From: a virus
Lineage: Duplodnaviria; Caudoviricetes
DNA: 64,000 nucleotides
Direction: 5' to 3' (one strand)
Virus record (IMG/VR): IMGVR_UViG_3300009130_000022
Location: 4,954 to 68,953 of that record
The notes below the pieces were generated by a model, which had not been told where the DNA came from, did not search any database, and was given only the letters and a program-made list of their open reading frames with translations. A program made the translations under genes and the position numbers. Shown in pieces: positions 192 to 10,640 of this stretch. Each line of letters starts with the position of its first letter. Within the stretch, counting starts at the first letter, position 1.

Positions 192-264
192 CTAAGTCCT
201 TGATAGTCATGGACTTACCAGCGCGGCTGCCGCGCACCTAACTCATTGATAGTCAAGGGCTTAA
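192..264. repeat. Paired-palindrome element copy 1
   Basis: CTAAGTCCTTG-ATAGT-CATGGACTTAC, GC core with GCGCGGCTGC, CTAACTCATTG-ATAGT-CAAGGGCTTAA. Confidence 0.9.
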
Positions 265-376
265 GAAGATGCCCTCCCAAGCTAACATGAAAGCTCGGAA
301 GGGCTGCGTGGTTATGAGAGATGAATAACTACGCTAGAGTCATTATTATGTTATTTGCTGTTTCGCTTTTTCACTT

Positions 377-892
377 TTATAATTTATAAAATATATGATT
401 ACCTATAACCTTAACAGGCTTCTTTCCTTTAGCCCATTTCGGTTTATCTATTTTATTATTATGATAGTGATTAGCAAACCCAACAAAATCACGACTTAAA
501 AGTTTTATGTTTTTAGCCAGAGAGATAGCGTATTTGGCTTGTGGAACTTTAAGCAAGTGTTCAAGGCTCTTTAACGCTTTACCGTTCCAACAACTGAACT
601 GGTAGGGCTTGAGACAGACTTCTTTTGGTGTTCTACCTCGTTCAAATGCTCGTTGAGCAATGACAGCAGCAACCGCATACATCCCTCCCTGCCCCTCTCC
701 TCTCGCCTCGGCAAGTATAGTAATCGCAATGACCTTCGTCTCTCTAGTAAGTTTGACATTGTTATGTGTGTGTTGCGCGTTAACAGCATTAAGGCCCGCA
801 GCCATTAACGCTGCCGTCCAGACCAGTCGCCACCACGCATCGAGTTCGTTCAGTCCAGTATCGTTGATTAACCATTTTATTCTATTTTTCAT
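377..892 (-). CDS. SleB-like cell wall hydrolase (Hydrolase_2)
   Basis: TILAEARGEG..GMYAVAAVI, PYQFSCWN, HYH, IGNHIFY motifs; N-terminal hydrophobic segment. Confidence 0.9.
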   Translation of the reverse strand: MKNRIKWLINDTGLNELDAWWRLVWTAALMAAGLNAVNAQHTHNNVKLTRETKVIAITILAEARGEGQGGMYAVAAVIAQRAFERGRTPKEVCLKPYQFSCWNGKALKSLEHLLKVPQAKYAISLAKNIKLLSRDFVGFANHYHNNKIDKPKWAKGKKPVKVIGNHIFYKL

Positions 893-1248
893 TTTATTGT
901 TGGCACAGCATGAGCAAAAGACACGCTACTGTAGCAGTCAGTCTCATCGTACTTCGGGGCGTTTTCAATCTTGTTAAGTTCGTGTTCTACATCTTCTTCT
1001 GTCATCCAGCCGCGAACATCAGAATAGCCCAGTTTTTCGTTGTAAACAACATCCCAGTCATTTTCCTGTGACGCGCCTTTAAGTGTGCCGATCTTCAACA
1101 AGGCCAACTCATACTTACCCTCTCTGCCGCCATAGCTATAACTATGACGAACAACAGACAGACCATAACCGTTCTTGAAACGAACGATTCCGTGAACACC
1201 TTCGGGGTCTACCCCGTGACACCTAAATTTAATATCTGAAAATTTCAT
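889..1248 (-). CDS. Conserved phage hypothetical protein
   Basis: FKNGYGLSVV..YGG..GKYELA motif typical of phage small proteins; coupled overlap. Confidence 0.8.
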   Translation of the reverse strand: MKFSDIKFRCHGVDPEGVHGIVRFKNGYGLSVVRHSYSYGGREGKYELALLKIGTLKGASQENDWDVVYNEKLGYSDVRGWMTEEDVEHELNKIENAPKYDETDCYSSVSFAHAVPTIK

Positions 1249-1511
1249 GCGTCCTCTCCAAGCTCAAAGCCTAACGGTGAAAAAGTATCGTCGAACCTAG
1301 CCTTGTTAAGCCCTTTCCGTAAGGTCGTCAGGATGTCTTTTTGCTCTTTGACGATTCTCCTAATGTCCTCAATGTCACCTTCCATGTAGTAGCATTTATT
1401 ATGCGCACGATTAAACAAATGCTCGACATGGGTCAACGAACCCTCAACATCAGCCATAGCCAAACGGGTCTGTTCGATTTCCTTCGCTGCTCTTTTGGTC
1501 ATATCTCTCAT
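1245..1511 (-). CDS. Hypothetical coiled-coil protein
   Basis: ORF directly after promoter 1522-1550. Confidence 0.7.
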   Translation of the reverse strand: MRDMTKRAAKEIEQTRLAMADVEGSLTHVEHLFNRAHNKCYYMEGDIEDIRRIVKEQKDILTTLRKGLNKARFDDTFSPLGFELGEDA

Positions 1512-1521
1512 AACTTTTAAT

Positions 1522-1550
1522 ATAGTATCACAAACAGGTTAACAAGTCAA
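1522..1550 (-). promoter_or_regulatory. sigma70-like promoter
   Basis: TTGACT-17-TACTAT. Confidence 0.7.
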
Positions 1551-1557
1551 GCACTTT

Positions 1558-1767
1558 TTAGTACCATTGTTTCCTGTCGGTCTCGGTGTCATAGCCGTGG
1601 TTGTAGGCTTCTATCTCCGATGCCGTCATATCCTTCTCCTCTACCATCTTGGATGAACCTGTTCCACCTTCGTAGTAGTGCGGGTTGCTGCCTCTGCCGT
1701 AGTAGCGATCTGCGGAACCTCGATCATAAGGCCCGCCATGTCTCTTGTTGTATATCTTCTCTGTCAT
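1558..1767 (-). CDS. Conserved phage hypothetical protein (RHGGPYDRGSAD motif)
   Basis: Start moved to ATG 1767 because a consensus promoter lies within the longer ORF call. Confidence 0.8.
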   Translation of the reverse strand: MTEKIYNKRHGGPYDRGSADRYYGRGSNPHYYEGGTGSSKMVEEKDMTASEIEAYNHGYDTETDRKQWY

Positions 1768-1777
1768 AACTCCGCAC

Positions 1778-1806
1778 ATTATAGCATCAGAGGGTGTCCG
1801 TGTCAA
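1778..1806 (-). promoter_or_regulatory. sigma70-like promoter
   Basis: TTGACA-17-TATAAT. Confidence 0.85.
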
Positions 1807-1823
1807 CACTTTTTTTTCTTGTC

Positions 1824-1897
1824 GTAAGTTGTTAACTATCATAGACTTAGCAAGCGCGGCTGCGGCCCAGCTAAGTCATTGATAATCAAAGAGATGG
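1824..1897. repeat. Paired-palindrome element copy 2
   Basis: GTAAGTTGTTA-ACTAT-CATAGACTTAG, core GCGCGGCTGC, CTAAGTCATTG-ATAAT-CAAAGAG. Confidence 0.85.
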
Positions 1898-1969
1898 ACG
1901 CGAGGGTCGGAATCGAACCGACGATTGCGGTTTTGCAGACCGCCGCCTTAACCACTTGGCCACCTCGCG
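1895..1969 (-). tRNA. tRNA-Cys (GCA), CCA encoded
   Basis: Acceptor CGCGAGG/CCTCGCG, U73, anticodon arm GCGGT-CTGCAAA-ACCGC, T arm GTCGG-TTCGATT-CCGAC. Confidence 0.95.
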
Positions 1970-2007
1970 TTTATTTGGTATTTAAACATTTCCTATTTGC
2001 CTGTCGC

Positions 2008-2036
2008 AAAAAAACCCCCCGCCGAAGCGAGGGGTC
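2008..2036 (-). terminator. Intrinsic terminator
   Basis: GC hairpin with TTCG loop followed by T7. Confidence 0.85.
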
Positions 2037-2065
2037 GTGAGCATGAATAATAACAACTCAGTTCT

Positions 2066-2371
2066 TCAGGAAGATTCTTCCAACGGAAGGTCATCGAATG
2101 CATCGCCGCCGCTCGGCTGCAATTCCTTCATCCGCGTCTTTAGGTTTTGAATTTGTTCGAGCTTCTTCATTCTATTTAATTTGAGTCCTTCCACGCTTCC
2201 TCGTAAACTCGAAATCTCTAGCTGTTGCTTTTTAACTAGGCTAGATACTTCATGCATTAGTTCACATACATCACTTAAAGACTCGGAATTCTCTTTTCCA
2301 AGAGCTTTAATGATCTCGAACACTTTGGGGTTCATGTTATACGATTCGTGGGGCTGATATTGATTTGCCAT
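2066..2371 (-). CDS. Hypothetical protein
   Basis: 101-aa ORF, coiled-coil-like. Confidence 0.7.
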   Translation of the reverse strand: MANQYQPHESYNMNPKVFEIIKALGKENSESLSDVCELMHEVSSLVKKQQLEISSLRGSVEGLKLNRMKKLEQIQNLKTRMKELQPSGGDAFDDLPLEESS

Positions 2372-2378
2372 AATTAAA

Positions 2379-2642
2379 TTACTCCGAAATTACTTGACGT
2401 ATCTGTGCGAACTTCTTATTGATAAACGCAACAACATCGCAGTCGGCTGCGTTTCTTTGCCGAAGAGACCTAATTTGGTAATCAATGTGCCTCCGCATTT
2501 CACTCCGAACATGATCCCGCATGATAATCTTGTCATGCTTTACCTTTCGTGTGACCTTCTTCTTCGCGGCCTTCTTCTGTAAATGTTTTGTTTTCACTAC
2601 TTCTTCTTCTTCAAATGCTTTTATCAACTCTTGATAATCCAT
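2379..2642 (-). CDS. Hypothetical basic protein
   Basis: 87-aa ORF in operon-like arrangement. Confidence 0.65.
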   Translation of the reverse strand: MDYQELIKAFEEEEVVKTKHLQKKAAKKKVTRKVKHDKIIMRDHVRSEMRRHIDYQIRSLRQRNAADCDVVAFINKKFAQIRQVISE

Positions 2643-2647
2643 GTATT

Positions 2648-2684
2648 AAAAAAATGGTGGCGGGAGTATTTGTGTACCCGCACC
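2648..2684 (-). terminator. Intrinsic terminator or attenuator
   Basis: GGTGCGGG...CCCGCCACC hairpin then T7, just before ATG 2642. Confidence 0.65.
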
Positions 2685-3175
2685 TTTTCAGTACCCAGAA
2701 AACAAATGTTTCAGATCTACTTACTTCGGACTCACCCACGAGATTCCTCAACCGATTGGTCTCCGTACTTGTCGCAGTCGCTACGTTACCCCTTTGGGAG
2801 GGGTTATTCCGTCACACCGATCTCACTCCGTCGAGAGAGAAAATTGAATTGAGTTGCTGCCGCGCCACCAGCAGTATGATCGCGCTGTATTGCAAGCGCA
2901 GTCGCGTAAGATGTCCTACCATCCCTGTCCTCCCCTTCATCCCGCCAAGGAAAAGGTTTGGCGATGGAGGCGTATTTAACTCGCCAACTCAAATTATATA
3001 AAAGAACTTTGGCCGCTTTTTATGAGGTGCTACCTCTAACTAGGCGCGAACCTAGGTGCGACCCAAATAAAGGGTCAGGGAGTGATTAGCATTGTATTCC
3101 TACCCTAATCTTTTAAGTCCGCCCTGCCAGACTTTCAACAACCCAAACCTTGGTTCATGACCAAATCAACCAAGA
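2648..3175 (-). ncRNA. Candidate ~525-nt structured ncRNA or long cis-regulatory leader
   Basis: Own promoter, terminator, no convincing ORF, at least 10 hairpins and long-range stems. Confidence 0.55.
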
Positions 3176-3181
3176 AAATAT

Positions 3182-3210
3182 ATGATAGCATGGTCGGGGT
3201 TCAATGTCAA
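3182..3210 (-). promoter_or_regulatory. sigma70-like promoter of candidate ncRNA
   Basis: TTGACA-17(ttgaaccccgaccatgc)-TATCAT. Confidence 0.8.
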
Positions 3211-3217
3211 CGCCTTT

Positions 3218-3460
3218 TTACAAAGCAGCCAGAGAAATTACTCTGTCTGCTCGAAAGGCCCGAACATCGCCATCACGGTTAATCACGCGAGCGTAAAACC
3301 CTACTTCACGCCCATCGTTGTAAAGTGGCTTCCACCCTCTACGCGCCCCCTTGAGATAATAAATCTTGGTAGCGTGTTTTTCGGGTGAATAAACCATCAC
3401 ATAGTTAGTAACCTTGGGAGCCATCCCAAGCCATCTCTTTACTCTGTCTTTTATCGTCAT
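3218..3460 (-). CDS. Small WYL/Sm-like-fold protein (putative)
   Basis: C-terminal GDVRAFRADRVISL resembles WYL R-x-FR-x-DRI motif. Confidence 0.5.
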   Translation of the reverse strand: MTIKDRVKRWLGMAPKVTNYVMVYSPEKHATKIYYLKGARRGWKPLYNDGREVGFYARVINRDGDVRAFRADRVISLAAL

Positions 3461-3471
3461 TCGTTAAAGTA

Positions 3472-3500
3472 ATAGTAACACAAATCGGGGCCGAGGTCAA
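3472..3500 (-). promoter_or_regulatory. sigma70-like promoter
   Basis: TTGACC-17-TACTAT. Confidence 0.75.
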
Positions 3501-3502
3501 GC

Positions 3503-4003
3503 CTAATCCATCGCAAACTTGAACCTGTCAAACTGTTCTTCTATCCTATGACAGAGAACATCAGTCAGCATCTCTCCACGACTCTCTGGAAAATCTTCCG
3601 AGAAGTTCTTAATTTCAATCTTCACTTGTTCCAATAAATCATTTATGTCATCCATTCCCTCATTATAGCACCCACGGGCTTCTTTGTCAACCCAGTTAGG
3701 GTTATGCTTGGACTGTAAACGCACCCAAGCCTCCGTATACAACACACGGTACTTCTCGCGCTTATCCTTTGGCCAAAGCCGTTGGTCAAACGTTTCCCTG
3801 TCATCGACAACAGGAGGAAAGTCAGGATGCACTATCCTCTGCGCCCTACTAGGCGAACAGCGGATATGCTTGTCATAGATAAACAAACGATTGGCGTCTG
3901 TGTTCTTTAGCTCGCCCGTCTCTACGCCAAGCTCTACCTGTGATTCCCAAGCTCCTTCTATGGGCTTGCCGCACTCTGCACAATCTGTCGGATAATAACT
4001 CAT
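3503..4003 (-). CDS. Hypothetical protein with CxxC
   Basis: 166-aa ORF, coupled overlap. Confidence 0.7.
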   Translation of the reverse strand: MSYYPTDCAECGKPIEGAWESQVELGVETGELKNTDANRLFIYDKHIRCSPSRAQRIVHPDFPPVVDDRETFDQRLWPKDKREKYRVLYTEAWVRLQSKHNPNWVDKEARGCYNEGMDDINDLLEQVKIEIKNFSEDFPESRGEMLTDVLCHRIEEQFDRFKFAMD

Positions 4004-4680
4004 AAAAGTCCTAAATTAACTAAATTCTCTGCGTTCTTTGGCGTATACTTTCTACGGCGTGGATGCTTCTTCTTAAAGCCCATCTGATCAAAGGTATACT
4101 TCAATCCTTTATTCCACGGCACACGCTTTGGCTTTGGCTCTGGAATGTAGAATATGTTGAAGTGCGGCCCAACAGCCGTCTTGTCCCTAACGACAACACG
4201 CTCTGACTTAAACAATGACTTTTTAGATATGTCATCTACAAAAGTATCATACTTATAAGGATTGTAATAAGCATGACGAAATTCCTCGCCTGACTCTGGC
4301 ACACACTTTTCGCACCACATGGTTCCTTTGCATTGACAAATCTCATACTTTTCTATCTTGTCACGAACTAACCGATGACGCTCTTTCGAAACCTCGCCAA
4401 TGTCATGGCAGTTGCCGATAATGTAAGCGTGAACATTCTTACGCTTTTCCCGAAGGACTCGTTGCCGCCCCGCCTCCTGCACTCGAAACTCCGCATTGTG
4501 CAATTCAACACGATGAGCGTGACAATAAAGCAATCCAGTTTCCGCATCAATCACCGAAAGGCATTCCTTCTGAATGTTGTAGTAAACTTTCACGCGGTCT
4601 GGCGCAACCTCGATGCCGTCCATCATCTTGCGAGGCCCAGCATCTTTCCAGCTAATGAATCCCTTTGGTTCTTTGCTCAT
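4000..4680 (-). CDS. Conserved phage hypothetical protein (RQRVLREKRKNVHAY family) with Zn-ribbon-like insert
   Basis: Recognisable phage motif; ATG 4680 gives ATGA coupling. Confidence 0.75.
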   Translation of the reverse strand: MSKEPKGFISWKDAGPRKMMDGIEVAPDRVKVYYNIQKECLSVIDAETGLLYCHAHRVELHNAEFRVQEAGRQRVLREKRKNVHAYIIGNCHDIGEVSKERHRLVRDKIEKYEICQCKGTMWCEKCVPESGEEFRHAYYNPYKYDTFVDDISKKSLFKSERVVVRDKTAVGPHFNIFYIPEPKPKRVPWNKGLKYTFDQMGFKKKHPRRRKYTPKNAENLVNLGLL

Positions 4681-4949
4681 GCTTCTTGGGCAATTTCTTC
4701 CATTGTTCCAAACAACTTTTCCCAACCCATTGGGCTTGTTCCAGAGATTAAAAACTCCCTGTCACCAGCGCACAACGACTTGAGCATCATAATGTTGCCA
4801 GTACGACGAAAGTCAAAAAGCTCTGACCCTTTAACCGTCACACTATAATTGTCACCAGTAACCAAACACGCCCCCGTGAATGTGTAGGTGTGTTCCGGCT
4901 CGTAAGCCTCGGTGTAGGTGCATCCTGTGTCAATGAATCTTTCCTTCAT
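4677..4949 (-). CDS. Hypothetical protein
   Basis: ATG 4949 follows promoter 4960-4988. Confidence 0.7.
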   Translation of the reverse strand: MKERFIDTGCTYTEAYEPEHTYTFTGACLVTGDNYSVTVKGSELFDFRRTGNIMMLKSLCAGDREFLISGTSPMGWEKLFGTMEEIAQEA

Positions 4950-4959
4950 AACTTTTAAT

Positions 4960-4988
4960 AGTATACCACAGCAGGGTGGTGAAGTCAA
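4960..4988 (-). promoter_or_regulatory. sigma70-like promoter
   Basis: TTGACT-17-TATACT. Confidence 0.85.
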
Positions 4989-5110
4989 CTACTTTTTTTA
5001 CCTTTTTTTCGGTTGTATGACCCTTTACCCTTTTTGGGCGTATGTATACGCTGCCCTGTGTTCCAAGGAACAAGTGCTCGTAGTCTGGGCTTTTCCGAAC
5101 TCGTTTTCAT
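4985..5110 (-). CDS. arfA: ArfA-like alternative ribosome-rescue peptide (41 aa)
   Basis: MKTSSEKPRLRALVPWNTGQRIHTPKKGKGSYNRKKGKKSS contains the ArfA signature KKGKGSYxRK; own leaderless promoter. Confidence 0.7.
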   Translation of the reverse strand: MKTSSEKPRLRALVPWNTGQRIHTPKKGKGSYNRKKGKKSS

Positions 5111-5116
5111 GCGTAT

Positions 5117-5145
5117 AGTATATCATACACGTGCTTGCAAGTCAA
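5117..5145 (-). promoter_or_regulatory. sigma70-like promoter (leaderless)
   Basis: TTGACT-17-TATACT, ATG 6 nt downstream. Confidence 0.85.
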
Positions 5146-5162
5146 GCATAAAAGTTAACATC

Positions 5163-5236
5163 GTAAGTCGTTGATAGTCAATGACTTACCCCACGCGGCA
5201 GCCGCCGCGCTAAGTCACTGAACATCAATGGTTTAG
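5163..5236. repeat. Paired-palindrome element copy 3
   Basis: GTAAGTCGTTG-ATAGT-CAATGACTTAC, core CGCGGCAGC, CTAAGTCACTG-AACAT-CAATGGTTTAG. Confidence 0.9.
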
Positions 5237-5270
5237 GGAAGAGCCGCCCCGCTAGGGGGCGGCGATAGAA

Positions 5271-5546
5271 TCAGACTGTTTCCTTTTGCTGCCTGAACAT
5301 ATTAGACAACAAAGCGCGTGCCTTTCGCAGTCTCAATTTAATGGGAGACATATCTATTTTATCTAAATAGTTTTCAACCTGTTCTTGTGTCGCCTTCTCC
5401 AGCTTTCGGTGGTTCCAGCTTCGCTCGTCTTTTTGATGCCAATAGGTTAGCACTCTAACCGGTGACACCTTACCTATGACACGCTCTGTTCTTTTAGTCT
5501 CTGTATTATAATACAGGGCTCCATTTCTTATTTCGTTTATTTTCAT
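5271..5546 (-). CDS. Hypothetical protein
   Basis: 91-aa ORF followed by GC hairpin. Confidence 0.7.
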   Translation of the reverse strand: MKINEIRNGALYYNTETKRTERVIGKVSPVRVLTYWHQKDERSWNHRKLEKATQEQVENYLDKIDMSPIKLRLRKARALLSNMFRQQKETV

Positions 5547-5607
5547 TTTTGCATTCTAATTATGATAGCTACGCAAAACCATAAAACCAACAGTCCTATG
5601 ATTAGCA

Positions 5608-6354
5608 TTATGCGGCCTTGTACCCTGTGAATCCTTTCTTTTTGAGTTCCCGCAAAGCCTTTGCAGACTTACTACCTTTTGGCTGCACCCCATGCAGGAG
5701 CAAACCAAAATCCTTTTCGCCATGTATGGCAAATTCATCGGTGTGGTCAACATCCAAACCCAATGCGTCAATTTCCTCTTGTGAAAAAAATACTGTCGCT
5801 TTTTTGACTCCCAGCCCAGCGATCAAATGGTCAAACTTACCACCTGACGAACAAGTGAAAACATAGTTGCTCGGCAACGCTTCCGAACATTGAAGATACC
5901 TAGCCAGAAACTGAACGCTTTTTGTATAACTGTAAAATGTCACCAAAGGGAAACGCTTTGCCGCTTCCATCCATGCGTCAAAATAGTCATATGAGAAAAA
6001 ATCCCCCCCAATATGCACACGCAAGAAACCGCCAATCTTCTGCAGCCCTTCGGGTATACTTCGGCAAATCAAATCCGTCATTCCTGTGACTGTTTTCGCC
6101 CTTGCTAACTTGTCAAGATTATCCCAACGAGCTTTTCTCACGGAAGGGTAGGTTGCTTCCATCCCTGCTGCATAACAACGATACGATACGCCGTCGACTG
6201 GTGTCGACCTGTCTGTCAGCTTGCCTGTCGCCCTGTCGGCCTTTGTGAGGCAATTCTTCGCGCCGGGACAAGTCCAGCCAGAGGGCAATGAGAAGTGCCA
6301 AATGCCTTTCAGCTTGGCGTTTTCAAATGTAATCAGTAGTTTATCAATTCCCAT
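5608..6354 (-). CDS. GP88-like phage protein
   Basis: FSLPSGWTCPGA..C, CYAA, RVHIGGDFF, FYSYTK motifs; start set to ATG 6354 after promoter. Confidence 0.75.
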   Translation of the reverse strand: MGIDKLLITFENAKLKGIWHFSLPSGWTCPGAKNCLTKADRATGKLTDRSTPVDGVSYRCYAAGMEATYPSVRKARWDNLDKLARAKTVTGMTDLICRSIPEGLQKIGGFLRVHIGGDFFSYDYFDAWMEAAKRFPLVTFYSYTKSVQFLARYLQCSEALPSNYVFTCSSGGKFDHLIAGLGVKKATVFFSQEEIDALGLDVDHTDEFAIHGEKDFGLLLHGVQPKGSKSAKALRELKKKGFTGYKAA

Positions 6355-6364
6355 AACGCAAACA

Positions 6365-6393
6365 AGTATAGCAAAGAGGGGGACGAATGTCAA
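6365..6393 (-). promoter_or_regulatory. sigma70-like promoter
   Basis: TTGACA-17(ttcgtccccctctttgc)-TATACT. Confidence 0.85.
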
Positions 6394-6396
6394 GAG

Positions 6397-6426
6397 AAAA
6401 AAGGAGGGGCGATTGCTCGCCCCTCC
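6397..6426 (-). terminator. Intrinsic terminator
   Basis: GGAGGGGCGA/TCGCCCCTCC stem plus T6. Confidence 0.85.
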
Positions 6427-6455
6427 CGTGTGCTAGGTGTGTTCCCCACCCTTCT

Positions 6456-6662
6456 TTAGTCCATAGCGGCTAAAGAATCCTCAAGATGCTTTCGCGTCAC
6501 TTCTTTGACCTTTGACTCGTCTAAACAGCGAGAGACAATAGTCGATGCTGGGATTCCTGTTTCTTGGGCAATCTTTTTTAGGTTGTCCAATATGCTCTGC
6601 GATATGCGAAATGCGCCCATCGCCTTCTTGCTGCCATCGGCAGACTTTTTTTCTGATGCCAT
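6456..6662 (-). CDS. Ribbon-helix-helix (CopG-like) DNA-binding protein
   Basis: AFRISQSILDNLKKIAQETGIPASTIVSRCL fits the RHH pattern. Confidence 0.65.
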   Translation of the reverse strand: MASEKKSADGSKKAMGAFRISQSILDNLKKIAQETGIPASTIVSRCLDESKVKEVTRKHLEDSLAAMD

Positions 6663-6677
6663 AATAAGTATTATAGT

Positions 6678-6857
6678 TTAACTTTTCTTACTGTTACCGT
6701 AAGAAATTCTTTTGGGCCTACCTTTAGAATCTTTCGGCCCTTCTGGTTCCAAGCCGTGCTTTTTAAGGAACTTCTTGTACCCCTTGTCAACATCCTTGGC
6801 TAGACCCGCAACATCGCCATAGCCCCAATCGCCTTGTTTAATAATGTCTCTACTCAT
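6678..6857 (-). CDS. Hypothetical basic protein (59 aa)
   Basis: MSRDIIKQGDWGYG...SKKS fills the gap; below ORF-track cutoff. Confidence 0.6.
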   Translation of the reverse strand: MSRDIIKQGDWGYGDVAGLAKDVDKGYKKFLKKHGLEPEGPKDSKGRPKRISYGNSKKS

Positions 6858-7293
6858 AAGAATTAAAAGATGGTGTCTTGCCGTTTATGCTACCGAGCCT
6901 GTGTGGGTCAGGCACACATTGTTTCGGTTTAATGTTATTCACAAATTGCAAATTCTCCATTTCGTCAATAGCCGCTTTCATTGAATCTTCGTCGATACGG
7001 CTATCGTCAAAATCCGTATGCCACTCACTATACAATGGAGATTCACCCATTTCAATCCTTTTTTCATCGTCTTGAATAAGTCTTGCCTTGATTGACCTAC
7101 GAAAATAGTGCAACATTAAGTCAGGGCTTGTCATAAATGTCAAACTCTTGCTATCTGCTTCCTTGACCTTGCTTGTAGCTAGATGATTCAAAAGCGAATT
7201 TGCCATTAGTCCTAATGCCGTTTCCGAATTAGTGACGCAACTGCCATACCACTTTTCCTCTCCGTCTCTCTGGAATGTTAATTGTCCTAACAT
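6850..7293 (-). CDS. Hypothetical protein
   Basis: GAGGA RBS-like motif and promoter upstream. Confidence 0.7.
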   Translation of the reverse strand: MLGQLTFQRDGEEKWYGSCVTNSETALGLMANSLLNHLATSKVKEADSKSLTFMTSPDLMLHYFRRSIKARLIQDDEKRIEMGESPLYSEWHTDFDDSRIDEDSMKAAIDEMENLQFVNNIKPKQCVPDPHRLGSINGKTPSFNSYE

Positions 7294-7319
7294 AGTCTTT
7301 TCCTCTAAACGCTGTTAAA

Positions 7320-7348
7320 AGTATGCCATAGGCGGGAAACAATGTCAA
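7320..7348 (-). promoter_or_regulatory. sigma70-like promoter (divergent pair)
   Basis: TTGACA-17-CATACT. Confidence 0.7.
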
Positions 7349-7372
7349 CAGTTTTTTTCAATAATAATTTGC

Positions 7373-7401
7373 TTGACGCAGGGGTTTAACTGTGATAGAA
7401 T
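7373..7401 (+). promoter_or_regulatory. sigma70-like promoter for small RNA
   Basis: TTGACG-17-TAGAAT with TG extension. Confidence 0.8.
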
Positions 7402-7407
7402 ATCCAA

Positions 7408-7480
7408 AGTGAGTGGGGGGTGGCTTAGCGGATTCCCAGCTGCGGCCTGTTAATTGTGATAGGGACTCCCCCCACTCGCT
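7408..7480 (+). ncRNA. Candidate small RNA, tRNA-Asn-like but lacking T arm
   Basis: 13-bp closing stem AGTGAGTGGGGGG/CCCCCCACTCGCT; D-arm-like TGGCTTAGCGG..AGC; CTGTTAA loop. Confidence 0.45.
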
Positions 7481-7481
7481 C

Positions 7482-7556
7482 TTAAACCTTTGACTATCAT
7501 AGACTTACGCGCGGGGCAGCCGCGGCGAGCTAAGTCATTGATACTCAGGGACTTAC
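7482..7556. repeat. Paired-palindrome element copy 4
   Basis: TTAAACCTTTG-ACTAT-CATAGACTTAC, core GCGCGGGGCAGC, CTAAGTCATTG-ATACT-CAGGGACTTAC. Confidence 0.9.
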
Positions 7557-7607
7557 GTGTCAAGCTTTTAATTGAGAAACTTTTTTGCCTATGACCGTAA
7601 AAAGTGC

Positions 7608-7636
7608 TTGCTATGATAACCCTCCTGTGGTAAGAT
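7608..7636 (+). promoter_or_regulatory. sigma70-like promoter
   Basis: TTGCTA-17(tgataaccctcctgtgg)-TAAGAT. Confidence 0.7.
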
Positions 7637-7665
7637 ATAAAGCGTGTTAAGGAAAGGATCAGATT

Positions 7666-8583
7666 ATGGCAAGACCAAGTAAACCCCATACATCGGTGTT
7701 CGACTATGTAGTCGAGCAGAGGAAAACCTACATCCCGCACGGCGACGGTTATCGCTGGACAGGGAAGTGGAGCAATGTTCGCACGGATACGGGCGAATCA
7801 TTAGGTGACGGCATCAGCGAGCAATACGGTTTGCTCCAGAACGGGGTGCTAGTCGAGTCGTTGGAGAACGCCTTCAACGACTACAAGGAGTTGCAGGACT
7901 TCACCCGCGAAGTCTCGGTGACTGAAAACGGTGCGCGTTTCTACGGGCGGTATAGCTTCCCGAAGAACCAGCGCATTCTCACTCCTGCCGTGGGCGACTC
8001 GGTAGGTATGGTGTTCGACTTGCGGAACTCGTTTGACCGTTCCACCAAGGCAGGGCTGGGCATCGGTTCGCTTCGTTTGCTCTGCTTGAACGGCATGACC
8101 TCCACCGAGAACATGGCCTCAATCACGGCAAGGCACACCAACAAGATCAATGTTGGCACGATAAAGGATGGCATCGAAATGGCCATTGAACGCTGGGAAA
8201 ACTCCATCGACAAGATGGCCGAGTTCACCCAGAGGGAAGTCACCCAAGAACAGGGTGTCGTGATTCTGAATAACCTTGCCCAGAAGAAGGTGCTGTCGGA
8301 ATCTCTCAAGGACTCCATCGAGTTCATCTGGAACGGTCAGGTCGAGGGACTTGGCAGGGGCGGCGAAGCTGACAAGGCTCGCAATCTGTGGAACCTCTAC
8401 AACGCGACCACCGAGCATCTGACTCACCAAGTCGCGCCGAAGCGGTTCGAGTATTCTCGCAGCGTCGAGAATAAGGTTCTGTCAACCTTCACGCGCTCGC
8501 TGAAGGACAACAAGGTTTGGGATGCGCTGCTGAAGCCCGTTCCAAAAAACAAAGAGGACAAGACAGTTACAATTTCTGTCTAA
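7666..8583 (+). CDS. DUF932-family protein
   Basis: ISEQYGLLQN, ENGARFY, LRNSFDRS, LRLLCLNG, RHT, NLWNLYNATTE motifs; AAGGA RBS. Confidence 0.85.
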   Translation: MARPSKPHTSVFDYVVEQRKTYIPHGDGYRWTGKWSNVRTDTGESLGDGISEQYGLLQNGVLVESLENAFNDYKELQDFTREVSVTENGARFYGRYSFPKNQRILTPAVGDSVGMVFDLRNSFDRSTKAGLGIGSLRLLCLNGMTSTENMASITARHTNKINVGTIKDGIEMAIERWENSIDKMAEFTQREVTQEQGVVILNNLAQKKVLSESLKDSIEFIWNGQVEGLGRGGEADKARNLWNLYNATTEHLTHQVAPKRFEYSRSVENKVLSTFTRSLKDNKVWDALLKPVPKNKEDKTVTISV

Positions 8584-8595
8584 CCTCATAACGCT

Positions 8596-8630
8596 AGGGG
8601 GCGGGGCGCACGAGCCTCGCCCCTCTTTTT
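8596..8630 (+). terminator. Intrinsic terminator
   Basis: GC-rich stem followed by T5. Confidence 0.75.
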
Positions 8631-8634
8631 AAAC

Positions 8635-8829
8635 ATGACAAGATATCACAATTCTCCGAAGCGGAAATATTCCGTGACGCGCTTTGATGCGAAAAGGGTG
8701 CAGATAGCATGGCGACCCGACCAGCGAACAGCTCACGCCCTATTGTTTGAAAACCCCAATCATATAAACCTGATTCCGCAAATACTGGAAGAGGCAGGAT
8801 ACGAACGCTGCGAACGCGCCGTGTTCTAA
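8635..8829 (+). CDS. Possible hypothetical protein
   Basis: 64-aa ORF after a terminator; weak support. Confidence 0.35.
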   Translation: MTRYHNSPKRKYSVTRFDAKRVQIAWRPDQRTAHALLFENPNHINLIPQILEEAGYERCERAVF

Positions 8830-8898
8830 GTCGTTGACTGTCAATGACTTACGCGCGGGGCTGCGCGCCTCGTAAGTCTCTGATACTCAATAGCTTAC
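8826..8898. repeat. Paired-palindrome element copy 5
   Basis: CTAAGTCGTTG-ACTGT-CAATGACTTAC, core GCGCGGGGCTGC, GTAAGTCTCTG-ATACT-CAATAGCTTAC. Confidence 0.9.
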
Positions 8899-9123
8899 AA
8901 CAATTAAATGGCAAAAAAATTATTAAATTATTCTTTATATATAATACTCTACTCATTTATCTATGTATATCTGTCAACTCATTGGTATATTTACATACTT
9001 ATTTGGTGCTTATTTGAAAACTGGCAATAAACCGGCGTTTATTTATTTGGACTTATTTGATAAACTGGCAAAAACTGGCAAATATTCAATTATAATTATT
9101 TGCAATTTATTTAAAAACTGGCG
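8899..9123. repeat. AT-rich tract with AAACTGGC direct repeats
   Basis: AAACTGGC at 9018, 9062, 9072, 9115; AAACCGGC at 9029; several TTATTTG. Confidence 0.65.
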
Positions 9124-9156
9124 AAAAAAAAAGGACTCACGCTTTCGCATGAGTCC
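9124..9156 (-). terminator. Intrinsic terminator
   Basis: GGACTCATGC-GAAA-GCGTGAGTCC plus T9. Confidence 0.9.
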
Positions 9157-9391: not shown

Positions 9392-10357
9392 TTAACTCAA
9401 CCAATCTTCAAGGTTTTTTAAGTAGTCTTGGCCGCGAGTTGTAAGACAACGACCTTGAGGGTCAATCTCCATCAGATTGTGCTTCTGGAGGTAGAGTTCA
9501 TGGTCGCGCTGTAAACAAGATTTACTCAATCCCAACTTTGCTGACAAATTGGTGAGGCGCGTGAATTTCTGTTCACTCAATGTTTGAAGTAAACGAATCT
9601 CGGCGCGTGATAGCCCAAGAGCAGCAATGTCCAAGGTTCGACGCAACTTCTTCCAATCATCGTAGGTGAAATTAGTTTTATCTCCCGACCTCTTTTTGCC
9701 CAAGTGCAAGCGCACCTTGTCTGCCATTTGTTGAGCCTTCCGAGCGTTGCCGCGCAATGTCGGCGCGATTTGGGAAAGCACCTTGCCTTGCCATTTCTGC
9801 TTCTCGTTGATGCCCTTCATTATCAGACCTAGTTCGTCATGGGAATAATCCTCCAAGTCGATACGCTCCATCCTGTCCATCAAGGCATGGAAAACATCTT
9901 GAGCCTCGGTAGTGGCGAAAATGAAACTCAATCTAGTAAAATCACAAACAAAAGTATAATCATCATAAGTAAATTCAGTTACATTATCTTTGTTTGGATT
10001 CAACATTGTTAACAATGCCATTGTTACATCCTTTGGCAGTTCACTACATTCATCGAACAATATAGTAGCGTCCCTGTCTACCAGATGCGGCACAACCAAG
10101 TCATTGAAGAATTGCTTGAGGTTGCTTATCGTGGCACAATTAATTTCCAGCAACGGTTTAGGCCGCCCATCCTTCGTTACAAGGTTTCTGCCAAGTGCCT
10201 TCGCAAAGACGGTCTTGCCAGTTCCTTTGGGCGCAACAAACATAATGTGCGGTATCTGGCCGCTAGATTGATACGCTTCAATGAAGAATGTTATCTTACG
10301 CTTGGCAGCGTCTTGTCCTACAAGGCTAGGGAAGTAATCAGTAGTAGTAGTTTTCAT
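9392..10357 (-). CDS. ruvB: RuvB-like AAA+ branch-migration ATPase
   Basis: Walker A APKGTGKT, Walker B ILFDE, FIFATT, LRGNAR, C-terminal winged helix ending GRCLT. Confidence 0.85.
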   Translation of the reverse strand: MKTTTTDYFPSLVGQDAAKRKITFFIEAYQSSGQIPHIMFVAPKGTGKTVFAKALGRNLVTKDGRPKPLLEINCATISNLKQFFNDLVVPHLVDRDATILFDECSELPKDVTMALLTMLNPNKDNVTEFTYDDYTFVCDFTRLSFIFATTEAQDVFHALMDRMERIDLEDYSHDELGLIMKGINEKQKWQGKVLSQIAPTLRGNARKAQQMADKVRLHLGKKRSGDKTNFTYDDWKKLRRTLDIAALGLSRAEIRLLQTLSEQKFTRLTNLSAKLGLSKSCLQRDHELYLQKHNLMEIDPQGRCLTTRGQDYLKNLEDWLS

Positions 10358-10382: not shown

Positions 10383-10640
10383 TTATTCTTCTTCGTAGTT
10401 TTCTATCTGTATGCCTATTGCCATTCTAGGCTCATCTGGAGCATTGACTCCCTGCCTCACCAGATCATTTATACTGGCGGCATTGTTGGTCACTTTGAAT
10501 GGTTGACAGGCTAGATTAAGTGCTTCCGCATACCGTCGATTTATTATCACCGATGCGTTCTCTTTCAATACCCGATTTAATTCTAACAGGCTAATTCTAA
10601 CAAAAGACCCTGCTCCTTTTGGTCTGCCAGTTCTCGACAT
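10383..10640 (-). CDS. Small protein with AT-hook-like GRPKG motif
   Basis: MSRTGRPKGAG; leaderless start. Confidence 0.65.
   Translation of the reverse strand: MSRTGRPKGAGSFVRISLLELNRVLKENASVIINRRYAEALNLACQPFKVTNNAASINDLVRQGVNAPDEPRMAIGIQIENYEEE

Follow-up and report, generated by a model that had tools for sequence, protein, structure and literature searches.

The repressor gp71 of mycobacteriophage L5 has as its sites the stoperators, asymmetric 13-mers dispersed through intergenic DNA in one orientation. The REP/BIME (REPIN) class is defined by GC-rich REP palindromes in inverted pairs together with an associated RAYT transposase, and in the BIME-1 (RIP) elements of E. coli, REP palindromes flank a site for IHF; BIMEs have been proposed to act as topological or transcriptional insulators. 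IHF sites are also known in lambda PL and cosB, in Mu Pe, and at sigma-54 promoters. The promoter-early stem-loops (PeSLs) of the T4-type phages RB49 and phi1 are repeats in which each unit itself combines a promoter with a terminator stem-loop (Arbiol et al. 2010, PMC2839356). In the cultured Stenotrophomonas phage DLP6 (KU682439), repeated boxes were found with PHIRE and published as "phage promoters" (Peters et al. 2017, PMC5349666). As judged from their sequence, nothing suggests that the DLP6 boxes are themselves promoters.

We analyzed a 64-kb stretch of DNA from an uncultured phage (hereafter, the window), in which the joints between early-gene units hold five DNA modules of 73 to 75 bp. 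Each is built of a 25-bp imperfect palindrome, a 21- to 23-bp GC-rich spacer, and a second palindrome (Table 1). What an earlier note had observed in this DNA is confirmed: all five copies that it listed were found, with 12 strand-matches to a strict pattern against 0.00 expected from 100 dinucleotide shuffles, and the distance of 46 to 48 bp that it gave between paired palindromes held in every copy (46, 47, 47, 48, and 46 bp from start to start in copies 1 to 5). As it had also claimed, a scan of the window gave no copy past 9 kb, and all half-site matches with at most one mismatch fall within the five elements. A relaxed scan recovered 9 of the 10 palindromes and three weak matches elsewhere; shuffled windows yield zero to three matches of this weak type. 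The orientation said to be common to all cores is found in copies 2, 4, and 5 but is ambiguous in copies 1 and 3, the cores of which are themselves palindromic. The element region may continue leftward of the window edge.

Table 1. Coordinates of the five elements and of neighboring features in the window
Feature	Positions	Strand	Description
Copy 1	193..263	none	Palindrome 193-217, GC core 218-238, palindrome 239-263
Copy 2	1825..1896	none	Palindrome 1825-1849, GC core 1850-1871, degenerate palindrome 1872-1896
Copy 3	5164..5235	none	Palindrome 5164-5188 (best copy), GC core 5189-5210, palindrome 5211-5235
Copy 4	7483..7555	none	Palindrome 7483-7507, GC core 7508-7530, palindrome 7531-7555
Copy 5	8827..8897	none	Palindrome 8827-8851, GC core 8852-8872, palindrome 8873-8897
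Sigma-70 promoter beside copy 2	1778..1806	-	Strong; 12/12 consensus match
Sigma-70 promoter beside copy 3	5117..5145	-	10/12 match
DUF932 gene	7666..8583	+	Pfam PF06067, E=6.7e-15

The elements lie at module boundaries, as proposed: all copies in the window start within 5 nt of a 3' end, which they abut or overlap. Convergent genes lie on either side of copy 1, and a terminator-like hairpin (304-271, minus strand) has its stem 7 nt from this copy and sends its T-rich tail into it. Copy 2 has a right palindrome whose outer arm is degenerate and takes in the final 2 nt of a tRNA-Cys (3' end at 1895); on its left side, 18 nt separate the palindrome from the -35 box of a downstream promoter. Gene 5271-5546 (minus strand) ends in a GC hairpin (5237-5268) that directly precedes copy 3, and this copy, too, ends 18 nt upstream of a -35 box, so that two of the five copies have a promoter 18 nt downstream, both of them strong. 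Copy 4 begins 2 nt past the end of a small promoter-driven RNA (7373-7480, plus strand), and on its right a TTGACA box follows after 2 to 3 nt and the DUF932 promoter after about 50 nt more; copy 4 brackets the DUF932 cassette on the left as copy 5 does on the right. Copy 5 opens with a triplet that serves as the stop codon of ORF 8635-8829 (plus strand), and an AT-rich repeat region (8899-9130) adjoins this copy. The description of all copies as intergenic thus gives way at the shared stop triplet and at the 2-nt tRNA overlap, and for copy 2 it requires that the start of the downstream gene be ATG 1767, past the promoter, and not ATG 1842.

About 70 uncultured viral contigs contain this architecture, with at least 300 occurrences in all that usually lie where cassettes join, and this family of elements is widespread and essentially undescribed. 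In 731 kb of viral loci we counted 714 palindromes, mostly paired with GC cores; they are imperfect and 25 to 29 bp long, and the spacer is about 85% GC. The family is not restricted to the kin of this phage, since elements occur outside its relatives. Two near-complete relatives have the element confined to an 11-kb region, and 7 pairs within 11 kb were counted in relatives. The fixed geometry described in the window recurs within each lineage but not between lineages (41 to 42, 46 to 48, 50, 52 to 53, and 58 bp), from which it follows that no universal helical phasing is required. Outward -35 boxes peak at 16 to 20 nt from the element across the family, a range that includes the gap at copy 2; promoters firing into the element and terminators 20 to 29 nt away form further peaks. 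By strict criteria, 35% of elements have no recognizable promoter or terminator nearby. Depending on lineage, the element lies upstream of a promoter, overlaps it, or sits at +1; therefore, no single transcriptional mechanism fits all.

The palindromes behave as DNA sites rather than as RNA structures, which agrees with the protein-binding reading offered earlier. Across 76 promoter-oriented elements (1,672 pairs), we observed 70 G.U pairs, 74 A.C pairs, and 142 other mismatches. G-G and C-C are frequent at positions 4, 6, and 7, one pair position is unpaired in 46 of 102 sequences, and 87.3% of cells are paired, compared with 85.4% in a column shuffle. Equal numbers of G.U and A.C, frequent G-G and C-C mismatches, and pairing close to that of shuffled columns argue for protein sites in double-stranded DNA; the compensatory and wobble changes of a structured RNA and the U-tract of an intrinsic terminator were not found. 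The cores could form GC stems of 5 to 6 bp, although no better than shuffles do (mean z -0.34 against the expectation from GC composition), and no U-tract follows them.

Each half-site contains a 13-mer, TATCAACGACTTA, that fits the IHF consensus WATCAANNNNTTR as given in PMC9452768 and PMC10380432. Full matches to this consensus occur in 369 of 668 distinct palindromes (55%), compared with 15.5% (maximum, 18.9%) when the centers are randomized. In the window, 5 of the 10 palindromes match, all on the minus strand and including both palindromes of copy 1. The two consensus halves overlap within a palindrome, with a 3-bp center; from the structure of IHF-DNA complexes, we presume that a symmetric IHF-family dimer site fits such overlapping halves poorly and that each palindrome would take no more than one IHF. 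Besides their sequence, these putative sites have in common with IHF sites a position 55 to 115 bp upstream of early promoters, and in L114 a palindrome takes the canonical place of an IHF site, with upstream repeats on one side and a sigma-54-type or sigma-70 promoter on the other. The nearness of the 13-mer to terminase genes in a third phage group is a further likeness. They differ in being palindromic, doubled, and paired around a rigid GC spacer, with many repeats per genome. They also differ in that the N4 positions, unconstrained in a plain IHF site, are conserved here (mostly CGAC), as is the flanking CG; conservation that such a site does not require hints at a more specific reader. 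Like BIME-1/RIP, the elements are extragenic palindrome mosaics with an IHF-type site that follow the 3' ends of units in many copies. However, the arrangement is inverted, in that RIP has an IHF site in the middle with GC-rich REPs on both sides and the present elements have a GC core in the middle with IHF-like palindromes on both sides, and the phage and chromosomal elements have no sequence similarity.

DLP6 contains an identical 12- to 13-nt word in 14 sets of direct repeats. These stand as pairs by a GC hairpin and a -35/-10 promoter ahead of gene clusters; all boxes match the IHF consensus, and all sets are co-oriented with the genes. The DLP6 boxes are single half-sites, directly repeated 25 bp apart on the upstream side of the hairpin and scattered across about 100 kb, whereas the window has overlapping inverted half-sites that flank the GC core within 9 kb. 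One weak match aside, the two phages have no protein in common. Direct arrays of the 13-mer occur at 44 further viral loci, 23 of them upstream of terS/terL-like genes, and a third phage group has such arrays with a 22-bp period near its terminase genes; direct arrays with periods of 22 to 25 bp are too tight for simultaneous IHF occupancy. Between the direct-array loci and the palindrome phages, we found no small protein in common, only a SleB-type lysin. A word common to phage groups that lack a common candidate regulator favors a host factor. We found no phage HU/IHF gene in G001-G003 or in DLP6.

Our best explanation, which we advance tentatively and as somewhat short of probable, is that a host protein of the IHF type docks on the modules, insulating transcription units, tuning promoters, and marking crossover points. 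Each copy would be a docking module of double-stranded DNA, with two palindromes a lineage-fixed distance apart. The binder would most likely be a pre-existing IHF-type protein, i.e., a sequence-specific, DNA-bending nucleoid protein, given the fit of the 13-mer to WATCAANNNNTTR and its occurrence in those separate groups. Binding could turn the module into a nucleoprotein block, rigid and with a sharp bend, that occupies the short gap between the 3' end of one early unit and the next promoter. Such a block may insulate neighboring units, either by stopping read-through or by limiting topological spill-over, and may tune the adjacent early promoter: placement upstream (copies 2 and 3, DLP6) would activate, and placement at the transcription start (other lineages) would restrain. 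Being repeated and self-complementary, the copies might also be preferred crossover points at which cassettes have been inverted, swapped, or replaced over evolution.

We also considered whether the palindromes are operators of a global regulator encoded by the phage itself, a dimer that represses or activates early genes, is too small or divergent to be recognized, and is comparable to Cro/Ner-type shut-off proteins or to the system of dispersed stoperators in L5. We consider this unlikely, although several observations lend it weight: the 11-bp half-sites are strongly conserved, including at positions that IHF leaves unspecified; many copies in the family sit at +1 or over the -10 or -35 box, the classic operator positions; and the elements are limited to one early-type region of 9 to 11 kb. 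As with stoperators, a single protein site recurs in many of the short intergenic gaps of an early region, where it could block elongation, but the elements are palindromic pairs without an identified repressor, whereas L5 has a known one. The most constant neighbor is DUF932, homologues of which adjoin elements in 28 loci and are present in 25 of 44 element-bearing records; its predicted structure has a weak, nonsignificant fold likeness to the DNA-binding domain of T4 MotA (Z 5.7 and 5.2). However, no protein family or candidate binder co-varies with the palindromes. The two binders suggested in the earlier note are not supported by co-occurrence: homologues of the RHH protein (6456-6662) occur only in the window and in L073, and the AT-hook protein (10383-10640), like DUF932 and the RuvB-like ATPase, is also present in sister phages (L150-L152) that lack these palindromes. 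These sister phages have another repeat at the junctions of the same set of genes, so the element is not indispensable. DLP6 and the direct-array phages have no candidate regulator in common with the window. A simple repressor would not act from a position upstream of promoters, which is where the sites are found in the window and DLP6.

The rearrangements bear on whether the elements are instead dedicated recombination sites for a cassette exchange like that of integron attC sites or invertases, the palindromes binding a recombinase and the GC core serving as the crossover. Among four element-bearing phages (the window, L073, G003, and G002), all the differences found in gene order or orientation break at elements: the DUF932 cassette is swapped with a GP88 module, a hydrolase module is inverted, and gene 5271-5546 is inverted. 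Bracketed cassettes include GC-rich genes on the opposite strand (DUF932, ORF 1-182). Sites of the attC, hix, or dif type are marked by an encoded cognate recombinase and a conserved crossover core; here, core sequence and length vary between lineages. Cores are 76% alike within a genome compared with 55% between genomes, as exchange between copies would produce, and in L014 the loop flips between copies from a G-run to a C-run. Nevertheless, we regard dedicated recombination sites as improbable. No recombinase domain, be it integrase, invertase, or transposase, was found in the element region or among Pfam-annotated conserved neighbors. Element positions and synteny are kept between the window and L073 at 60 to 80% protein identity, which indicates slow turnover, and in DLP6 the same word forms gene-co-oriented direct repeats upstream of promoters. 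The inter-operon gaps in which the elements sit are the only viable breakpoints in any case, so the coincidence is suggestive and does not prove causation. The earlier interpretation is partly supported: its PeSL analogy holds for repeated regulatory junctions that double as crossover points, without sign of a dedicated recombinase. Both systems consist of intergenic repeats that cluster in an early region of high plasticity (9 to 11 kb here, where the association with shuffling is a correlation), both include a GC-rich (polyG/polyC) segment and lie beside strong sigma-70 promoters whose upstream DNA is AT-rich, and in both, recombination between copies would account for modular shuffling. The 73- to 75-bp unit differs from a PeSL in containing no -35/-10 pair and no proven terminator, its promoters being separate and beside two of five copies, and in that conservation falls on two protein-site palindromes common to unrelated phage groups.

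Passive or selfish spread of a miniature repeat (REPIN- or MITE-like) among phages with a common host pool, with conservation due to descent, would explain why the element occurs in otherwise unrelated phage groups and is missing from close sister lineages, why cores are homogenized within genomes, and why copy number varies widely (5 copies in 9 kb here, 29 palindromes in 9.4 kb in L034). We judge it quite improbable, because four invariant palindrome columns alongside variable positions 4 and 7 are the signature of a binding site and not of recent copying, and because placement is ordered relative to promoters and 3' ends and orthologous in the window and L073. The palindromes are also AT-rich and conserved across unrelated genomes, unlike REPs, and no transposase was found in the element region or among Pfam-annotated conserved neighbors.

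Action as RNA or as a single strand, with three consecutive hairpins serving as a terminator, processing site, transcript-end stabilizer, or N4-like hairpin promoter, is very improbable and largely refuted: the pairing and folding results above speak against it, no Rfam family matched, and canonical terminators usually precede the element, even though copies directly follow the tRNA-Cys and the small RNA, cores in some lineages have UUCG or GAA loops, and in bacteria the same palindrome sometimes lies, terminator-like, between A- and T-runs.

The five copies share a single plan, namely a 25-bp imperfect palindrome (11-bp arms around a 3-bp centre), a core of 21 to 23 bp and a second palindrome, with the two palindromes starting 46 to 48 bp apart. 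Their placing in the earlier note, made from the sequence alone, was borne out by our scan of the window. A strict pattern gave 12 matches on both strands of the window versus 0.00 expected, and every half-site match with at most one mismatch falls within the five copies. A relaxed scan recovered nine of the 10 palindromes, together with three weak matches elsewhere in the window that are background of the kind also seen in shuffled windows. Copy 2 has a right palindrome that is degenerate at the junction with tRNA-Cys, and GCWGC is present in all five cores.

The first 9-10 kb of the window contain small genes, a tRNA, non-coding RNAs and strong sigma-70 promoters, and have a GC content of 44-47% versus 36-42% elsewhere. 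From 9.4 kb onward nearly all genes lie on the minus strand, including those for a DnaE-type polymerase, DnaB, a RecA-like protein, a class II ribonucleotide reductase and sugar enzymes. Read on the minus strand, each copy begins at most 5 nt from a 3' end, which it abuts or overlaps (see the table). Downstream of copies 2 and 3 lies a promoter each, its -35 box exactly 18 nt from the end of the element; seven further strong promoters of the region are without an element, which indicates that the element marks junctions between units and not promoters as such. At copy 4, a consensus promoter leads into an RNA of about 75 nt that is closed by a long G/C stem and ends 2 nt before the element, which follows this small RNA as it follows tRNA-Cys at copy 2. 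Two plus-strand genes, each of which starts or ends at an element, are visibly GC-richer than their surroundings, consistent with their being acquired cassettes.

Positions in the window of the five copies, the 3' ends that they meet and neighbouring features
Feature	Position	Strand	Description
Copy 1	193-263		3' end: terminator-like hairpin with T-rich tail (304-271)
Copy 2	1825-1896		3' end: tRNA-Cys
Copy 3	5164-5235		3' end: GC hairpin (5268-5237)
Copy 4	7483-7555		3' end: plus-strand small RNA ending at 7480
Copy 5	8827-8897		3' end: stop codon (8827-8829)
Promoter beside copy 2	1806-1778
Promoter beside copy 3	5145-5117
Small RNA with promoter	7373-7480	+
GC-richer gene	1-182	+
GC-richer gene	7666-8583	+
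ORF-poor stretch	2648-3175	-	Promoter-driven
manA-like match	2650-2838		Sub-threshold Rfam match
80-aa protein	3218-3460	-
AT-rich gap	8899-9130		Direct repeats at 8995, 9039 and 9092
RuvB-like protein	9392-10357	-
AT-hook-like protein	10383-10640	-	85 aa

An exact-pattern scan of viral contigs retrieved 86 loci, nearly all of which show a palindrome, a GC core and a second palindrome, and a relaxed scan found 714 palindromes in 731 kb of these viral loci. Pair spacing is fixed inside a lineage and varies among lineages (41-42, 46-48, 50, 52-53 or 58 bp). Many loci belong to relatives of the window phage, with the RuvB-like ATPase, DUF932, GP88, an L5 gp82-like protein and a SleB-type hydrolase in common, and others carry PhoH, a sigma-like protein and an intein-bearing terminase. 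Two relatives, G003 (complete, 170 kb) and G002 (90% complete, 144 kb), have seven pairs each, limited to the roughly 11 kb adjoining the RuvB-like gene. No close cultured phage was found: a 12-kb megablast query returned nothing from cultured phages, a single element searched by BLAST returned only noise from them, and the nearest relatives in a search with the RuvB-like protein were phages at only 52-54% identity.

Family-wide, the distance between the palindrome edge and an outward-facing -35 box peaks at 16-20 nt, the range into which copies 2 and 3 fall. The commoner arrangement is a promoter directed into the element, with the transcription start at the first palindrome, and in a minority of elements the -35 box abuts the palindrome. 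A canonical terminator reads toward the element in one third of cases, most often from 20-29 nt away. In one retrieved locus (L114), a palindrome lies between upstream GC palindromes and a sigma-54-type or sigma-70 promoter, 36-40 nt downstream. Inside these junctions, each about 150 bp long, terminator, element and promoter follow one another in every order, which argues for an architectural or boundary role over one fixed promoter mechanism. As a separate observation, one upstream module in L114 serves either type of promoter, and near-consensus sigma-54-type promoters stand directly beside a single palindrome, inside GC-rich inverted repeats, in L058, L079, L085 and L114.

The palindromes could act as hairpins in RNA or as sites in DNA, and we compared these readings through their mismatches. 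In 76 elements whose transcription direction was set by an upstream promoter, G.U (70) and A.C (74) pairs were equally frequent, and other mismatches (142) were commoner than either. Among 102 oriented palindromes, 87.3% of cells are paired, versus 85.4% with partners exchanged among the sequences at random; double changes cluster at one pair, and another pair is unpaired in 46 of the 102. The symmetry is therefore that of one half-site present twice, as is characteristic of protein sites. In the oriented alignment four columns are invariant, a further ten keep the same base in at least 90% of copies, and positions 4, 6 and 7 are often G-G or C-C. The cores average 84% GC, have folding energies no better than those of shuffles, are enriched in GCWGC (46 versus 19 expected) and resemble one another more within a genome (76%) than between genomes (55%). 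On these results the element is a DNA site and not an RNA or a hairpin.

The inner half of the arm and the centre together form a 13-mer that fits the IHF consensus, WATCAANNNNTTR (PMC9452768, PMC10380432). Two-thirds of the palindromes have TAN or NTA as their centre triplet, which completes this consensus, so that 55% of 668 distinct palindromes match it in full versus 15.5% with random centres. The IHF-type word points with transcription about 2:1, and the two centres of a pair show a weak tendency to be co-oriented (36:26). A literature text search for the motif strings gave as its sole relevant match the paper on Stenotrophomonas phage DLP6, in which PHIRE identified 25 "phage promoters", 22 of them in pairs (PMC5349666). 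In the DLP6 genome (KU682439) we found 14 sets of the same 12-13-mer, each made up of two direct copies at a distance of 25 bp with a GC hairpin and then a T4-early-like -35/-10 promoter after them; all sets are co-oriented with the genes. DLP6 and the window have essentially no proteins in common, and a DLP6 box pair used as query matched DLP6 only. Our scan found the word in direct arrays in 44 further viral loci (L153-L196), in 23 of which three to four copies, repeated every 22 bp, lie upstream of a putative pair of small and large terminase genes. No small protein is common to the direct-array and palindrome-bearing phages, their sole shared protein being a SleB-type lysin. The terminase-linked arrays occupy a divergent gap (e.g., L154:6571-6604) and could be packaging, origin or regulatory sites.

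We then considered which protein reads the word. The earlier note had put forward two phage proteins as binders, neither of which tracks the palindromes: the RHH protein was found only in the window and one related locus (L073), and the AT-hook protein is present also in sister phages (L150-L152) where palindromes are absent. DUF932 and the RuvB-like ATPase likewise occur in these sister phages. Because the word is common to unrelated groups and the candidates do not track the palindromes, a host protein would be the most economical reader. No phage-encoded HU or IHF was found in three relatives of the window (G001-G003) or in DLP6. IHF, the only known protein whose consensus fits the word, is a candidate reader on this sequence match; it does not account for the conserved CGAC or for the CG on the flanks.

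Two further candidates were set aside. DUF932 yielded a good AlphaFold model (pLDDT 84) that offers no case for a binder: Foldseek against the PDB returned nothing significant, a PDB profile search was empty, and BFVD gave only other DUF932 proteins. In a wide structural search the top Z was 6.8 and the T4 MotA DNA-binding domain appeared at Z 5.7 and 5.2, inside the tool's stated noise band; no assigned function for DUF932 was found in the literature. The RuvB-like ATPase lacks the GAFTGA motif and so is not an enhancer-binding protein, and the window shows no enrichment of sigma-54 promoters (22 matches versus 24 expected). The ATPase is a full-length, very divergent AAA+ protein with a C-terminal winged helix, matching PDB RuvB at E=1.6e-10, far below family cut-offs. 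The adjoining 85-aa protein has an N-terminal AT-hook-like GRPKG, and the pair is conserved in 11-14 loci, where it borders the cassette region. An 80-aa protein is WYL-like by eye in its C-terminal part and has homologues in 14 loci of several lineages; it has no Pfam match.

With the RuvB-like gene as reference, we compared gene order in the window, L073, G003 and G002. The DUF932 cassette precedes the GP88 module in the window and L073, and this order is reversed in G003 and G002, where gene 5271-5546 is also inverted. Compared with the other three, the window has its hydrolase module in inverted orientation, and the hydrolase gene lies at the other end of the segment between elements, as inversion predicts. 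DUF932 lies on the opposite strand in all palindrome-bearing relatives and is co-oriented in sister phages without palindromes. The proposal that cassettes shuffle at the copies is supported in that every breakpoint among the compared phages falls at an element; it is not thereby proven, because viable breakpoints must fall between operons, where the elements sit. The sister phages have the same gene set with a different junction repeat (L150:11200-19600, L151:10500-20200, L152:11300-20900). It is an inverted repeat with TGGCA in its arms and a GC core that gives a sigma-54-promoter-like GG-N10-GC on both strands, followed by an A-rich tract and a strong -35/-10 promoter; its outer arm bases resemble those of the window palindromes.

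Among known systems, the E. coli RIP/BIME elements are nearest in composition, with their parts in inverse order. The DLP6 boxes are nearest in sequence. In behaviour the nearest described system is that of the PeSLs, which differ in being promoter-plus-terminator units (PMC2839356). We regard the elements as a variant of repeated phage junction elements. A bolder proposal, which we consider improbable, is that one 13-base word read by a host DNA-bending protein would be a "junction code" common to several unrelated phage groups sharing a host pool. With the word doubled to give palindromes on either side of a GC clamp, portable insulator and crossover modules would form, allowing early-gene cassettes to be expressed autonomously and exchanged between otherwise unrelated phages, in a recombinase-free, host-factor-assisted analogue of the integron. 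If a host factor does read the word, this one docking word would organise the early genes of a large set of uncultured phages, 40-200 kb in size, and of at least one in culture, and early-gene cassette borders in metagenomic phage genomes would bear a recognizable mark. It would also offer a testable case of phages recruiting a nucleoid protein both to insulate their early units and to drive them, and a concrete substrate on which to study how small cassettes of accessory genes pass from phage to phage, a question of long standing. Both DLP6 and its host are cultured, which makes the central claim (the reader of the word and the effect of its loss) directly testable there.

Two non-coding stretches of the region also drew our attention. 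The ORF-poor stretch is probably a conserved structured RNA; it includes a sub-threshold match to the manA RNA motif (40 bits versus a gathering score of 55, E=1e-7), and its conservation extends to L073, L021, L067 and L014, in which spurious ORFs give alignments of up to 80-82%. The AT-rich gap between copy 5 and a small gene beside the RuvB-like ATPase holds three direct repeats of about 37 nt, and comparable AT-rich repeats lie at the same place in L150-L152; it is a candidate replication origin or regulatory region.

The palindrome also occurs at 41 bacterial loci, mostly as single copies beside unrelated genes (DsbD, ArgRS, M23 peptidase) and with no neighbouring regulator, a count that partly represents the chance level of hairpin-rich genomes. 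In Fibrobacter (L087, L104, L116, L126), the same 25-bp palindrome lies upstream of the same operon, encoding a 136-aa protein and an M23 peptidase, in at least four loci, and in Akkermansia (L112, L115, L121) it lies upstream of argS in two of three loci, as judged by ORF position. In each of the two genera the palindrome has CG flanks and precedes the same operon in several species, and it may be a functional site in bacterial chromosomes too.
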